From an uncultured Verrucomicrobiota bacterium (GTDB lineage: Bacteria > Verrucomicrobiota > Verrucomicrobiia > Limisphaerales > J093): a stretch of 64,000 nucleotides of DNA. Shown piece after piece: positions 16,384-19,300 of the stretch. Position 1 is the stretch's first letter; the number at the start of each line of letters is the position of its first letter. The notes beneath the pieces were generated by a model. That model did no database searches and was not told where the DNA came from. It worked only from the letters and a program-made list of their open reading frames with translations. A program made the position numbers and the translations under genes. The stretch is from assembly GCA_964396005.1 (NCBI GenBank), contig CAYNCT010000001.1:19679-83678 (forward strand), read 5' to 3'.

Positions 16384-19300
16384 CTAACCGACTCCCCGGT
16401 CTTCCGCCGGACCGCCGGGCGCTGACGTCGCCGGATCGTAATTGAGCCACGGCCCCAGCCAGCGCTCGGTCTCGGCCACGGACTGGCCTTTGCGCGCGGC
16501 GTAGTCCTCGATTTGGTCGCGGCCCAGCTTGCCGACGGCGAAGTACTTCGCCTCGGGATGCGAAAAGTAGAAGCCGCAGACGCTGCTGCCGGGCCACATG
16601 GCGCAGCTTTCGGTCAGTTTCATGCCGGTGTGCCGCTCCACATCCAGCAACTGCCAGAGGGTGCGCTTTTCGGTGTGGTCCGGACAGGCGGGATAGCCGG
16701 GGGCGGGGCGGATGCCGCGATACTTTTCCTCGATGAGGTCGGCCGGGGTGAGGTTCTCCGCGCGACCATAGCCGAGTTCGGCGCGAACCTGCTGGTGCAA
16801 CCACTCGGCGAAGGCTTCGGCCAACCGGTCCGCCAGCGCCTCGGCCATGATGGCGTTGTAGTCGTCGTGCCCGGTCTTGAAACGTCGCACCAGTTCGTCA
16901 AGGCCGTGGCCGGTCGTGACGGCGAAGGCGCCCAGGTGGTCGAGGGGCGAGGGGCGAGGGGCGAGGGCAGGCCCTGAAGCATCGTCTTCTCGACACTCGG
17001 CGCTCGACGCTCGACCGGCCCTGGGCGCGATGAAGTCGGCGAGGCAGACGTTGGGCTTGCCGTCGTCCTTCACCATCTGCTGGCGGAGGAAGTGGAACCT
17101 GGCGAGCACCTCCGCGCGGTTCTCGTCGGTGTAAAGCTCGACATCGTCGCCGACACGGTTGGCTGGAAACACGCCATAGACGCCGCGCGGCGTAAGCAGC
17201 TTGCCGCTGACGATCTGGTCGAGGAGCCGCTGCGCGTCGGCGAAGAGTTTGCGGGCTTCTTCGCCGTGCTTCTCATGCTGGAGAATCGCGGGATAAACAC
17301 CGCGCAGTTCCCAGGTGTGGAAAAACGGCGACCAGTCAATGAAGGGGACTAGCTCTTCGAGGGATACGGCGGTGGGGTTTCCGCGAGGGCCGGCGCTGGC
17401 TCCGCGGTTGGCGTCTGTTTCTGTTGCCGCCAGCTCCGGAAGCCGGTCGCCGCTTCGTCGCACAACCGGCCCCAGTTTTGGTCCTTCCACACGCAAAACG
17501 CTTCCCATTCCGCCGGGTCTTCCAACTCCTTCGGAAGTGGCGTGCGATCGAGGCGCAGGCTCTCCTGATACATCCAGTCGTGCAGCCGCTCGTAGAGCTT
17601 CCGCTTTTCTTCGGACAAGGTCATAGACTTTCCTGGGTTGATCGTTCGCATCCTGCGCCGCTTTCCGCAGCAAACTAGCAAAAGCATTCCCGTGGGCCAA
17701 GCGGAGGTCTTCATAGATGCCGCGCCAGGGTAGCGCAAGGACGTCGCCGAGATGACGCGCCAGTTGGTGGGCCGTGGAAGCGAGGGCCGGTTTACCGCCC
17801 ATCGCCGCCCCCAGAACCACCGCGGCCTCGCTGACGATGCCTGCGGCAGTCAGGGCTTCCTGGACGGCATTCAAAGTTTCGCCACTGGTGAGAATGTCAT
17901 CCACCAGCACCACCCTGTGATTGGCCAACACCGTGGCAGCTTCGTGGGGAACCACGATCAAGGTCGGGGCCTCCATCTTGGCCACGTAGCCGCGCCGGTT
18001 CTTGGCCTCATCCAGGGAGCGGATGCCCAGCCCACCATAAATCAGGCCCCCAAAACGGGCCTGCAACCACTCGGCGAGGAGACGGGGCAGGGTGTTGCGG
18101 CCCGAGGTGGAGGGCGCCAGCACCCAGGCGACGCGTCCGCCCAGCACGGGCGTGTAAGCCTCCGGACGGCAATGCCGATCGAGGAAGGCGAAGGCGAGTT
18201 GCTGGTCGAACAACCGTTCTTTCAGCCAGCGCTTCTCAGCCACCATCCGGGGAGTGTCATCCGTAGTGAAGTAAGTCGGCAGGCATGCCAGTGCCAGAAG
18301 CTGTTTCAGTTCGGATTCGCACGTGAACTCGCGACCGCCAATCCGGCAGGGCAGGGTTGGGATGCGAGGGGTCTGGGCGCGCGGCACCTGGCAGACTGCG
18401 CTGGCCTGTGGCCCAAGCACACGCACCCCGGTGAACTCCGGCTCCGGCAAATCCTCGTAGCTCAGCTTCGGCGCATTGGCGCGAGCCTGTTCCAGCGTGA
18501 GCAGCCTCTGTTGCTGGCCGGTATGCTGGGCGCGCAGCTTCTCGTAATCGGCGCGAAGCTGCTGGACGAAGGTCGGTTTCTGGTCGCCACTGAGCAGCGC
18601 GCTCACCACCGGCACCGCCCGGCTGGCATCGAGCACATGCACCACGGGCTCGGAATAGCCGGGCGCAATTTTTACCGCCGTGTGCGCGCGGCTGGTGGTC
18701 GCGCCGCCGATGAGCAGGGGGAGCTTCATACCCTGTCGCTCCATCTCGCGCGCGACATGGACCATCTCGTCGAGCGACGGGGTGATCAGTCCGCTGAGAC
18801 CGATGATGTCCGCGTGGTGCTGGCGGGCCGCTTCGAGAATCCGGTCGCACGGGACCATCACGCCAAGGTCCACGACGCGGTAGTTGTTACACCCGAGGAC
18901 GACACCGACGATGTTCTTGCCGATGTCGTGGACGTCGCCCTTGACCGTGGCGAGGACTACGCAGCCGGCATTCTCGGAGTCGGCGTTGTCGGCGCCGGGG
19001 CCGCTCCCTCGCGCAGGGCCAGGGCTTCCTGTTCCTTGCGCTTGCGCTCCGCCCCCGCCTGCCGCAGCGCATTGAGCGTCGCTTCGTTCAGGATGCGCAC
19101 CTTTTCCAGGAACCGCTGCCGTTTGGAAGAATCGTTCGCGAACACTTCCCGCTGCGTAGTCGGGGTCGTCTCGGTTTTCATGGAGGTAAAGTTCAGCGGC
19201 GATCCGCCCGGTTTCAACAAGTTTTTCCTTCGAAGGATGCACCTGCTTCGCCAGCCAGTCCAAGTCCCGCTCCACCGGCCGGCTGAAGTCCGTATTGTCG

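Follow-up and report, generated by a model that had tools for sequence, protein, structure and literature searches.

Few same-strand nested genes of bacteria are well supported, and annotation pipelines do not allow them. In Bacillus subtilis, comS is nested out of frame inside srfAB, and in phage lambda Rz1 lies in the +1 frame inside Rz; in the Rz/Rz1 pair the small protein and the protein of the enclosing gene are physical partners. Inteins are foreign in-frame insertions at sites with very conserved motifs of essential proteins on either side, and are patchily distributed among close relatives. The toxin AvrRxo1 has a small helical antitoxin, Arc1, which is encoded downstream of it and remains intact even beside a toxin pseudogene (PMC4938570).

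Here we describe a locus that shares features with each of these systems, a methionine synthase gene (metH) of an uncultured Verrucomicrobiota bacterium that appears to enclose small genes in its +1 frame. The gene lies in a stretch of 64,000 nucleotides, the whole of which is called the window below. A literature search on metH insertions, genes nested in metH and toxin modules inside essential genes found no precedent.

A methionine synthase gene with two in-frame insertions

The enclosing gene and its two insertions lie as follows:

16384..22362, minus strand: metH, an uninterrupted single ORF of 1992 codons with a probable ATG start at 22317 and two insertions in interdomain linkers
18964..19989, minus strand: insertion 1 (cassette 1), from ...FMEAEKVKA of the cap domain to the cobalamin-binding domain
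17371..18414, minus strand: insertion 2 (cassette 2), from ...EFTGVRVL of the cobalamin-binding module to the activation module

The ORF contains all five MetH Pfam domains in the order Hcy, pterin, cap, cobalamin and activation (Pfam E 1e-20 to 1e-119), each scoring far above its Pfam cut-off. Apart from the two insertions it aligns end to end with human MetH, residues 5-759, 770-958 and 965-1263 of the human protein corresponding to residues 15-792, 1130-1313 and 1667-1976 here. By domain content and alignment, the ORF at 16384..22362 is a cobalamin-dependent methionine synthase (MetH). The domains that flank the insertions are 70-92% identical between loci, with a pN/pS of 0.36-0.38, and the metH frame is unbroken in independent assemblies. 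Each insertion adds about 340 residues: insertion 1 brings a zeta-toxin-fold kinase and insertion 2 a type I phosphoribosyltransferase-like (PRT-like) domain, and at the end of each lies a small +1-frame ORF.

We rejected the possibility that the insertions are inteins, as the junctions (marked by a slash in KVKA/RRVREL ... NAG/CVV and VRVL/GPQ ... PTA/VSL) do not have the required residues and no Hint domain was matched in Pfam. The insert appears to stay in mature MetH. An Rfam search of the whole window returned no match, and a sigma-70 promoter scan within metH returned none, a scan that says little for this phylum.

A small gene in the +1 frame at the end of cassette 2

Cassette 2 carries the following features:

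17614..18345, minus strand: PRT-like domain (RIGG...VYDLV) in frame with MetH; Pfam Pribosyltran score 32.3 bits, cut-off 26.3
17872..17913, minus strand: PRPP-binding loop of the PRT-like domain
17349..17624, minus strand: nested small gene 2, of 91 codons and a TAG stop, wholly within 16384..22362 and in the +1 frame with respect to metH
17628..17634, minus strand: purine-rich AGGAAAG, 3 nt upstream of the ATG of small gene 2, a possible ribosome-binding site
17371..17622, minus strand: MetH-frame spacer of 84 residues, composed of R, A and G (14% each), P (10%) and others

The profile of the PRT-like domain matched PDB entry 7f06, an adenine phosphopsicosyltransferase, over the whole domain (E 8e-9, positions 25-193), and with its PRPP-binding loop and core the domain is, on profile evidence, of the type I phosphoribosyltransferase fold. 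It is under purifying selection in the MetH frame (pN/pS 0.45). A ShosT profile matched the PRPP-binding loop weakly (E 2e-5, residues 152-205 only); we rejected Shosta (ShosTA) or another PRT-toxin defence system as the identity of cassette 2, since the match spans about 50 residues and no DprA-like gene lies nearby. Insertion 2 is also present in L003-L005, L008-L012, L014 and L017-L020, where L numbers denote the loci compared. When free-standing relatives of the PRT-like domain were sought, the only locus obtained was a further fragmented metH, and the searches made found no free-standing module of a PRT-like gene and a small gene; scans of viral contigs with both enzyme domains (zeta-like and PRT-like) were empty.

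Directly upstream of small gene 2 the minus strand reads CAACCCAGGAAAGTCT-ATG, the ATG occupying 17624..17622. The TAG (17351..17349) arises from cTA Gtc, two codons of the resumed MetH sequence ...SLEE-L-V-PF. Over small gene 2, GC3 is 0.79 in the +1 frame against 0.49 in the MetH frame; ordinary genes of the window have 0.8-0.9. The codon log-likelihood ratio, for which the 14 genes of the window served as reference, favoured the +1 frame (+45.9 bits) over the MetH frame (-52.8 bits); its sign flips in the PRT-like and activation domains on either side. The product, acidic with a pI of 5.2, is predicted to form a helical hairpin (helices 5-25 and 37-70) with a disordered tail; AF2, run with nine sequences, gave a pLDDT >90 over residues 1-60. 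It matched no family in Pfam, NCBIfam or PADLOC, nor any by Foldseek against the PDB. Because no family is detectable, the role of the small protein is inferred from its position only.

The purine-rich AGGAAAG also codes for a conserved (K/R)-(E/K)-V of the MetH frame. Motifs resembling AAGGAAG or AAAGAAG precede the ORF in most relatives and are missing in L001. As a Shine-Dalgarno signal it cannot be told apart from the MetH-frame codons for the conserved P-K-E-V-Y, and we regard it as a possible candidate site.

Conservation and frame-specific selection among relatives

Homologues of small gene 2 stand at the same place in metH, and in the same +1 phase, in 18 sequences from Verrucomicrobiota MAGs and metagenomes, the window included. 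The 18 are those for which DNA was at hand; the searches gave 8 protein matches at 54-70% identity, 8 genome loci, 4 metagenome loci and further distant matches, and a profile search of 1.8 billion proteins also finds homologues. With nucleotide differences of 29-43% per site, the homologues are not assembly copies of one sequence. Over 12 sequences, the +1 frame had a pN/pS of 0.39 (core) to 0.49 (whole ORF), compared with 1.2-1.3 for the MetH frame and 1.0 for the third; these are crude Nei-Gojobori ratios with saturated synonymous distances and overlapping frames, to be read comparatively rather than as absolute values.

Both ends of the ORF are held. The ATG is present in 17 of the 18 sequences, L015 being the exception, and it is found even in L001, where the residues of the MetH frame are D-E instead of Y-D/E; its price is a minor codon, TAT or GAT, in the MetH frame. 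The stop position is kept by CTA, GTA or ATA, the rarest codons (xTA) of Leu, Val and Ile, while the MetH residue varies between L, V and I. In the genes of the window, CTA makes up 0.4% of Leu codons and GTA 1.4% of Val codons, and the cassette-less metH copy of L007 has CTG at the stop-bearing codon. The ORF also persists apart from the enzyme domain: in L001 and L006 it is intact and equally conserved although the PRT-like domain is absent or cut to its last ~45 residues, and in L007 it is kept behind a metH copy that has no cassette at all.

The MetH frame behaves differently over the same nucleotides. Aligned by that frame, the spacer has a pN/pS of 1.03, in comparison to 0.36-0.38 in the MetH domains and 0.45 in the PRT-like domain, and it is without stops across small gene 2 in all 18 sequences. 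The chance of an open MetH frame in a single sequence was 0.002-0.14 when estimated from the protein and host codon usage, 0.05-0.6 when the synonymous codons of the ORF were permuted, and 0.03-0.5 empirically. Among 92-codon windows of ordinary genes in this 68% GC genome, 41% are stop-free in the phase that MetH has relative to the ORF and 6.6% in the +1 phase, so the openness of the frames in this window alone is not significant, and the weight of the case rests on the codon statistics and the comparison with relatives.

Taken as a whole, the codon statistics and the relatives make small gene 2, with high confidence, a real and separately constrained coding sequence. Both frames are constrained, as pN/pS is low in the +1 frame, the ATG and the stop are kept, and the MetH frame is stop-free throughout, and on this comparative evidence the metH mRNA region carries two superimposed constraints. 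By the indirect evidence of its openness in all 18 sequences and of the selection on the MetH domain downstream, the enclosing MetH frame would still be translated across the overlap; by its substitution pattern the amino-acid sequence of the spacer is unconstrained, stops alone being excluded. Judged by its location inside metH and by purifying selection in the +1 frame, small gene 2 qualifies as a same-strand nested (overprinted) gene. A sequence-only reading had given the upstream letters, the ATG at 17624, a 91-aa +1 ORF and a TAG in the resumed MetH motif, and all of these hold. It had also claimed a real +1 coding sequence overlapping a MetH frame that is still read, and had named codon analysis, structure prediction and conservation elsewhere as checks. 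The claim is borne out by the codon preference for the +1 frame, the 17 other sequences in which the ORF is under purifying selection in the +1 frame only, and the openness of the MetH frame.

Cassette 1 and free-standing relatives

The corresponding features of cassette 1 are:

19117..19989, minus strand: zeta-toxin-fold P-loop kinase domain in the MetH frame (Pfam Zeta_toxin, 36.3 bits against a cut-off of 22.3)
19600..19626, minus strand: Walker A motif GGQGSGKTT of the zeta-like domain
18957..19181, minus strand: nested small gene 1, 74 codons plus TAG, +1 frame, product basic (pI 10.5)

Among full-length loci, insertion 1 is limited to the window, L010 and L017; L005 is without it though its MetH is ~90% identical to that of the window. 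The AF2 model of the zeta-like domain (pLDDT 91) was closest in the PDB to Neisseria zeta_1 (6epg; TM 0.73, E 6e-10), followed by AvrRxo1, PezT and zeta, and the 17 nearest PDB chains were all entries of these zeta-family toxins. Across 21 zeta-like sequences, both embedded and free-standing, GGQGSGKT, D146, R188, R195 and R201 show little or no variation. On the predicted model, the domain is of the zeta P-loop kinase fold, with Walker A and the conserved Asp and Arg residues.

The first ~25 codons of small gene 1 overlap the conserved end of the zeta-like domain. Its codon scores were +37.2 bits in the +1 frame and -33.5 bits in the MetH frame, and pN/pS over the region was 0.51 and 1.25, respectively. 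It had no match in Pfam, NCBIfam or PADLOC. Homology of either small ORF to a known antitoxin (epsilon, PezA or Arc1) was rejected, as these databases gave no match; the resemblance to Arc1 is one of position and size.

The two cassettes share a common architecture, namely an in-frame enzyme domain followed by a small +1 ORF that starts inside the end of that domain. The sequence-only reading had observed that both cassettes end alike, and had taken this to argue for a shared mechanism or origin. In the window, both small ORFs do end in the same +1 frame at TAGTCC, but the identical stop is not general: L010 reads TAGTCC for cassette 1 but TAGCCC for cassette 2, L008 has TAA, the ORF of L015 stops 13 codons early, and the cassette-1 ORF of L017 stops 8 codons early. 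We accordingly discarded TAGTCC as the signature of a common end. A shared origin is supported by the architecture, while the reason first given for it fails, the identical stop being a coincidence of this genome. Compared directly, the two cassette ORFs gave only a weak match in the tail (probability 5%), and the nucleotide similarity of the two tails was not above that of shuffles, L017 being marginal (9 of 200).

Relatives outside metH were found for both cassettes. The free-standing zeta-like genes of L021, L023 and L025 each have, in the +1 frame, a conserved ORF whose start lies 74-83 nt ahead of the zeta-like stop, a position equivalent to the ATG of cassette 1, and whose pN/pS beyond that stop is 0.23. 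Homology between these downstream ORFs and the cassette-1 ORF found no support in hhalign (probability about 0), so the equivalence is positional only. For cassette 2, L016 has two tandem homologues of small gene 2 outside metH (hhalign 97%; E 9e-4 in a library-wide profile search), each with what is left of a PRT tail in front of it, in the -1 phase.

Proposed explanation

Because free-standing zeta-like genes carry an equivalent +1 ORF and because homologues of small gene 2 occur outside metH, the cassettes look like captured two-gene modules. By analogy with these free-standing genes, and given the homologues outside metH, we consider such an origin likely. Each cassette would once have been a module in which an enzyme or toxin-like gene was followed by a small gene overlapping its 3' end in the +1 frame. 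On in-frame capture within an interdomain linker of MetH, the first gene would have lost its stop and become a MetH domain, and the second would have persisted as an out-of-frame nested gene, across which selection on MetH would thereafter forbid only frame-0 stops.

In present-day cells, ribosomes from the metH start would read insertion 2 straight through in frame 0, giving a giant MetH of about 220 kDa whose cobalamin and activation modules are linked by the PRT-like domain and an 84-residue low-complexity spacer. Other ribosomes would initiate in the +1 frame at the internal ATG (17624), yield a helical-hairpin protein of 91 residues (10.8 kDa) as a separate product, and end at the TAG at 17349, where genuine MetH sequence resumes. 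Overall, we favour a translated spacer with a nested gene derived from a captured two-gene module, the small protein being a partner of the enzyme domain, as the best explanation, and hold it with somewhat better than even confidence.

A more specific role is tentative. By analogy with Arc1 and AvrRxo1, the small protein might be an antidote or regulator that binds the adjacent enzyme domain; the sequence-only reading had already raised neutralisation of the PRT-like domain. This role is weakened by L001 and L006, which keep the ORF without a (full) PRT-like domain, and by L007, which keeps it behind a cassette-less metH. An ORF without the PRT-like domain fits an orphan antidote and fits a function unrelated to that domain equally well. 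Since small gene 2 persists where the PRT-like domain is gone, the small protein probably has some role beyond partnering the enzyme domain.

A wider proposal is more doubtful, namely that an essential enzyme gene can be colonised by toxin-antidote-like two-gene modules, which settle in its interdomain linkers as in-frame insertions that do not splice, and which spread by recombination. An imprecise or out-of-frame deletion would kill the essential gene, so that the module would gain an intein-like safe haven. The patchy cassette 1 and a possible second host gene (lpxB, in L024) would then reflect spread between genes or lineages, by recombination through the very conserved flanking motifs.

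Alternative explanations

The alternative that survives best is de novo overprinting, in which MetH gained a domain with a long unconstrained linker and a small gene was born in that linker to serve MetH, for example by docking on the cobalamin or activation module, with no link to toxins and antidotes. An unconstrained linker is an ideal substrate for such a birth, the ORF is found only in metH if the L016 homologues are excepted, small gene 2 persists without the PRT-like domain, and no free-standing module of a PRT-like gene and a small gene was found. However, L016 does carry its two tandem homologues outside metH. Moreover, two unrelated cassettes have the same architecture, which for cassette 1 pre-exists in free-standing genes, so two independent births of small genes are unlikely. 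We regard this alternative as unlikely, though it deserves some weight.

Programmed frameshifting would make the hairpin a part of MetH: ribosomes would shift to the +1 frame near 17624 and return at the TAG, so that MetH would be the only product and no second gene would exist. The conserved stop codon of the ORF does fall exactly on the junction, and in prfB a stop codon acts as a frameshift stimulator. Yet frameshifting needs neither an ATG, which is conserved, nor an open frame 0, which is found in 18 of 18 sequences. No slippery heptamer is conserved at either end, CCCAAAG occurring in some sequences only and in the wrong phase, and to regain frame 0 ribosomes would have to shift by -1 or +2 at AGC-TAG, where there is no potential for re-pairing. 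The L015 ORF and the cassette-1 ORF of L017, furthermore, stop 8-13 codons short of the junction. We rejected a programmed frameshift site, as the ATG is conserved in place of a slippery sequence, and consider this alternative very improbable.

Equally improbable is a metH disrupted by its insertions, a decaying pseudogene or split gene whose long reading frame would be fortuitous and whose cassettes would be ordinary genes inserted into it. It draws on the large size of the insertions, on the L013 metH, which is called as fragments, and on stretches of L009 that look frameshifted. The high identity and low pN/pS of the flanking domains, the scores of the five domains far above their cut-offs, the continuity of the frame in independent assemblies and the location of both insertion sites in interdomain linkers speak against it.

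That the ORF is open by chance, in a GC-rich alternative frame of a linker that evolves fast, and yields no product, is hardly credible: one open window is weak evidence at the background rates given above, but the codon statistics favour the +1 frame, selection is frame-specific over 12 sequences, the start and the stop are maintained at the expense of codon choice in MetH, the fold is predicted confidently, the search of 1.8 billion proteins finds homologues, and the homologues are too diverged in nucleotide sequence to be assembly copies.

Significance and comparison with known systems

Standard annotation of these giant metH loci would never yield the small protein. The case for it is built on 18 diverged sequences and not on a single ORF, and it concerns two occurrences in one housekeeping gene. 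If the toxin-antidote reading were true, the locus would represent a new way for selfish or defence modules to anchor inside an essential gene, and would prompt one to ask how a zeta-type kinase and a PRT-like enzyme act once they are tethered to methionine synthase.

Cassette 1 resembles AvrRxo1-Arc1 in its zeta-toxin fold and in the small protein encoded immediately downstream, and the intact arc1 beside an inactivated toxin recalls the small ORF that is kept where the PRT-like domain has been lost. Unlike AvrRxo1-Arc1 and epsilon/zeta (PezAT), the toxin-like part is an internal domain of MetH and not a separate protein. The small genes are without similarity to Arc1, epsilon or PezA, and they lie downstream, whereas epsilon and PezA are encoded upstream of the toxin. 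Cassette 2 differs from the zeta-family systems in having a PRT fold. Its weak profile matches at the PRPP-binding loop link it to ShosT (Shosta), PsyrT and the retron type III-A PRTase, but these matches cover ~50 residues, the partner genes of such defence toxins (DprA-like ShosA, reverse transcriptase) are absent, and the best full-length relative of the domain is the APRT-like biosynthetic enzyme 7f06 and not a defence toxin.

Like inteins, the cassettes are in-frame insertions between very conserved flanks and are patchy, cassette 1 being present in the window and absent from L005. Unlike inteins, they have no Hint domain, N-terminal Cys/Ser or C-terminal His-Asn, and nothing suggests splicing.

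A close parallel is with comS/srfAB and Rz1/Rz, in which, as with small gene 2, a longer ORF completely encloses a small gene that is read from the same strand in another frame, encodes a separate protein, and leaves both frames in use. metH differs from these pairs in that it is a housekeeping enzyme gene with absorbed foreign domains and two nested genes in one ORF, and in that its enclosing frame is a spacer holding no amino-acid information over most of the overlap. With protein information in one frame and a spacer in the other, it offers a clean natural example that is useful for calibrating the detection of overlapping genes.

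Two insertions in an intact metH gene

The metH gene of the window carries the five MetH Pfam domains in canonical order and aligns end to end with human MetH, two insertions excepted. Both insertion sites are interdomain linkers bordered by very conserved MetH motifs.

16384..22362, minus strand: metH, single ORF of 1992 codons
MetH residues 792-1133, minus strand: insertion 1 (cassette 1), between the cap and cobalamin-binding domains
MetH residues 1317-1664, minus strand: insertion 2 (cassette 2), between the cobalamin-binding and activation domains

Insertion 1 encodes a Zeta_toxin-family P-loop domain (Pfam score 36.3 bits, cut-off 22.3) and insertion 2 a type I phosphoribosyltransferase (PRT)-like domain (32.3 bits, cut-off 26.3); a profile built from eight PRT-like domains matched the APRT-like enzyme PDB 7f06 over the whole domain (E 8e-9). 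The adjoining genes, encoding a PEP-CTERM protein, a DUF1559 protein and oxidoreductases, are unrelated, and an Rfam scan of the whole window gave no match. Between the upstream PEP-CTERM gene and metH, the minus strand forms a strong hairpin of 9 pairs (8 G-C) at 22507-22528, followed by a T-run; metH is therefore probably transcribed from a start of its own. Within the activation domain, at 17000-17100 (MetH residues ~1760-1790, between CLADFIAP and DHLGAFAVT), there is a third segment that is variable and of low complexity; its length and sequence differ at every locus, and its GC2 is raised (0.70).

A small gene in the +1 frame at the end of cassette 2

The sequence-only reading had described a nested +1-frame ORF at the end of cassette 2 (17349..17624, minus strand; small gene 2), and we verified all of its features: the ATG at 17624 with AGGAAAG-TCT directly 5', the 91 codons, the TAG at 17349-17351 made of cTA-Gtc from MetH ...SLEE-L-V-PF, and an R/A/G/P-rich MetH frame across the ORF. 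The proposed frame preference was borne out by quantitative codon analysis. Scored against the codon usage of 14 further window genes, small gene 2 reached +45.9 bits (+1 frame) against -52.8 bits (MetH frame), and the nested ORF of cassette 1 (19181..18957, minus strand) +37.2 against -33.5 bits; the sign was reversed in the flanking PRT-like and activation domains. In a sliding profile, MetH-frame GC3 dropped to 0.35-0.5 at the 3' ends of both insertions, where GC at the third position of the +1 frame was maintained at ~0.8.

Openness alone of either frame is unremarkable in this genome: in 92-codon windows of its ordinary genes, the +1 phase was open in 6.6% and the phase of MetH relative to the ORF in 41%. 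A related metH at locus L009 has apparent off-frame stretches near residue 350 and over its last ~270 residues, yet stays open for 1706 codons; these stretches are probably assembly indel errors, and serve as a reminder that off-frame ORFs remain open over long distances at this GC content. For the product of small gene 2, AlphaFold2 run on a 9-sequence alignment predicted a hairpin of two helices (5-25 and 37-70), with a disordered tail after it and pLDDT >90 across the first 60 residues.

Conservation and selection on the +1 frame

The ORF proved to be conserved elsewhere, in 18 sequences (window included), at the same metH site and in the +1 phase wherever the DNA was readable. A protein search with the 91-residue product yielded 8 homologues (54-70% identity), all from short metagenomic contigs; a scan of one genome per species yielded 8 loci, all in Verrucomicrobiota MAGs (Limisphaerales, Pedosphaera, Chthoniobacterales and 'Verrucomicrobiae'), and a metagenome scan 4 more. 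When 1.8 billion representatives were searched exhaustively by profile, only 8 proteins in all were recovered.

We compared the frames by Nei-Gojobori pN/pS on a codon alignment of 12 sequences, the conserved core of which is gap-free. Pairwise differences at ORF codon positions 1, 2 and 3 were 0.30, 0.29 and 0.43, peaking at the third. The pN/pS was 0.39 in the +1 frame of the core (0.49 over the whole ORF), 1.2-1.3 in the MetH frame and 1.0 in the third frame; aligned by the MetH frame, the stretch read through small gene 2 gave 1.03. For comparison, the cobalamin and activation domains gave 0.36-0.38 and the PRT-like domain 0.45. These ratios are crude, with synonymous distances near saturation and overlapping frames; even so, the frames differ strongly and consistently.

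The start and stop are likewise kept. The ATG occupies the aligned position in all sequences except L015, where an upstream ATG is used; it obliges the MetH frame to use a minor codon, TAT or GAT, and is retained in L001 although the MetH-frame residues there are D-E and not Y-D/E. A purine-rich stretch, a candidate ribosome-binding site, lies a few bases 5' of the ATG in most sequences (3 in the window) and is missing in L001; it also codes conserved MetH-frame residues. The stop, whose position is the same almost throughout, is formed by MetH-frame CTA, GTA or ATA, with the MetH residue itself varying between L, V and I; in the genes of the window, CTA makes up 0.4% of Leu codons and GTA 1.4% of Val codons. 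Locus L007 offers an internal control, with CTG at this codon in a metH copy without the cassette and CTA in the copy behind the small ORF.

The MetH frame is kept free of stops

Across small gene 2, the MetH frame contained no stop in any of the 18 sequences. For a single sequence, the probability of such an open frame was 0.002-0.14 given the small-protein sequence and host codon usage, 0.05-0.6 when the ORF's own synonymous codons were permuted, and 0.03-0.5 empirically, from the same phase in the rest of each metH; simple multiplication of these values is precluded by the shared ancestry of the sequences. Saturation is nearly reached at synonymous sites, yet no stop has been fixed, and T-ending codons are depleted in small gene 2 (3-11%) in comparison to most host genes. 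Taken with the strongly conserved activation domain downstream, these observations indicate translation of frame 0 across the ORF, where it serves as a spacer. A programmed frameshift was rejected, as it needs neither an open frame 0 nor the ATG, both of which are kept, and no conserved slippery site was present.

Cassette 1 and free-standing zeta-like genes

Cassette 1 was found in the window, L010 and L017. Its +1 ORF (69-74 codons) opens with an ATG that is itself conserved and falls within the conserved end of the zeta-like domain. Both frames are under constraint for the initial 24 codons (pN/pS 0.58 each), and beyond them pN/pS is 0.51 in the +1 frame and 1.25 in the MetH frame. The AlphaFold2 model of the domain (pLDDT 91) was nearest to the Neisseria zeta_1 toxin (TM 0.73, E 6e-10), followed by AvrRxo1, PezT and zeta. 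AvrRxo1 is a zeta-family toxin; its small helical antitoxin, Arc1, is encoded downstream and survives undamaged even where the gene for the toxin has become a pseudogene (PMC4938570).

Searching with the zeta-like domain revealed free-standing genes of ~285 codons (36-47% identity). In three such loci (L021, L023 and L025), a +1 ORF begins 74-83 nt before the zeta-like stop, a position equivalent to the cassette-1 ATG, and runs ~40 codons past that stop; it is conserved among the three, with pN/pS 0.23 in the part past the stop. Sequence similarity between these ORFs and the cassette-1 ORF was sought and none was detectable, so that the correspondence is positional. The modules at L021:3430-5900 and L025:2045-7374 lie in mobile-element- or defence-island-like contexts, with neighbours encoding an SMC_N/AAA_23 protein, a NOV_C protein, an HTH_17 excisionase-like protein, a 1593-residue AAA-like protein and, in a gene that overlaps the module's start, an HTH_36/DnaD_N protein.

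On a 1.5-kb metagenomic contig (L024:545-1519), the LpxB reading frame passes after its first ~250 residues, with no change of frame, into the beginning of a zeta domain like that of cassette 1 (74% identity to the window's copy); the final 25 nt are divergent, and GC falls at the contig end. This represents either a second host gene for cassette 1 or an assembly chimera. Two Prosthecobacter-type MetH fragments (P0019 and P0020) carry a more diverged cassette 1, at 45-50% identity with that of the window, followed by an apparently retained native linker (AEAAQQGGGKI); between them the cassette tail is conserved in the MetH frame (DRGGHLGSP..., LTAADLIPAEAA).

Descent of the cassettes

Between the window and L005, identity was 82-92% for MetH domains, 67% for the PRT-like domain and 69% for the small protein; with more distant loci it was 49-85%, 51-64% and 50-63%, respectively. 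Cassette 2 thus diverges in step with its host, in what looks like vertical descent under weaker constraint than MetH. Cassette 1 is patchy, being present in the window and absent from L005, whose MetH is ~90% identical, and present in L010 and absent from the similar L020. Alleles without the cassette, L005 and L020 among them, share a homologous native linker (AAxxAAGxxVxxQGxV), which implies that cassette 1 was gained or transferred rather than repeatedly lost.

The PRT-like domain is lost or reduced in L001, in L006 and in the arrangement at L007, each of which retains the small ORF intact. At L007:1-3300 the 3' half of metH is complete and free of cassette 2, with a 25-residue linker (SSEARMGSTCGCGQAHGPSTHGIFP). 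The stop of this copy is directly followed by a PRT-tail remnant, after which come the small ORF, intact, and the activation domain in a second copy. These activation-domain copies share 83% nucleotide identity and differ mainly at third positions, suggesting selection on both. In L016, two free-standing homologues of small gene 2 lie in tandem outside metH (817-1546, GC 0.56; hhalign probability 97%), each with a PRT-tail remnant (RLAH...RKAESLR) 5' in the -1 phase, which a stop within the first copy closes.

Proposed origin and role

The comparisons establish that two constraints are superimposed, that start and stop are conserved, that the product is foldable and that free-standing relatives have an analogous architecture. 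Each cassette was probably once a two-gene module, its second gene already overlapping the end of the first, that was captured in frame in metH with loss of the first gene's stop. Given the free-standing zeta-like loci, the Arc1 precedent and the L016 homologues outside metH, this is the simplest history for both cassettes. The small protein would be initiated separately at the internal ATG, and frame 0 would be translated as a disordered tether.

The small protein could act as a partner, either antidote or regulator, which would fit the zeta-fold domain and the analogy with Arc1. This role is weakened because the small gene is kept without the PRT-like domain, a retention that fits equally a role directed at MetH itself. 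The cassette-2 protein has a conserved tail, LALAE-x-PPPY, in fuller form LALAExPPPY(P/R)SKS (window 17349-17400). In L017 the cassette-2 protein ends in ...EEPPPYRPSPSKS, resembling the motif-like end of the same genome's cassette-1 protein, ...LALKETPPPYRPEPK, where the MetH frame is unconstrained; this statistically weak likeness may reflect a common docking motif or gene conversion.

Searches of a paper library for metH insertions, genes nested in metH or toxin modules lying within essential genes brought up no relevant work. Nested genes on the same strand, zeta-family toxin modules and domains inserted in frame are known individually; their combination, with two captured modules in one housekeeping ORF, second genes out of frame and the host frame serving as a stop-free spacer, appears to be undescribed.
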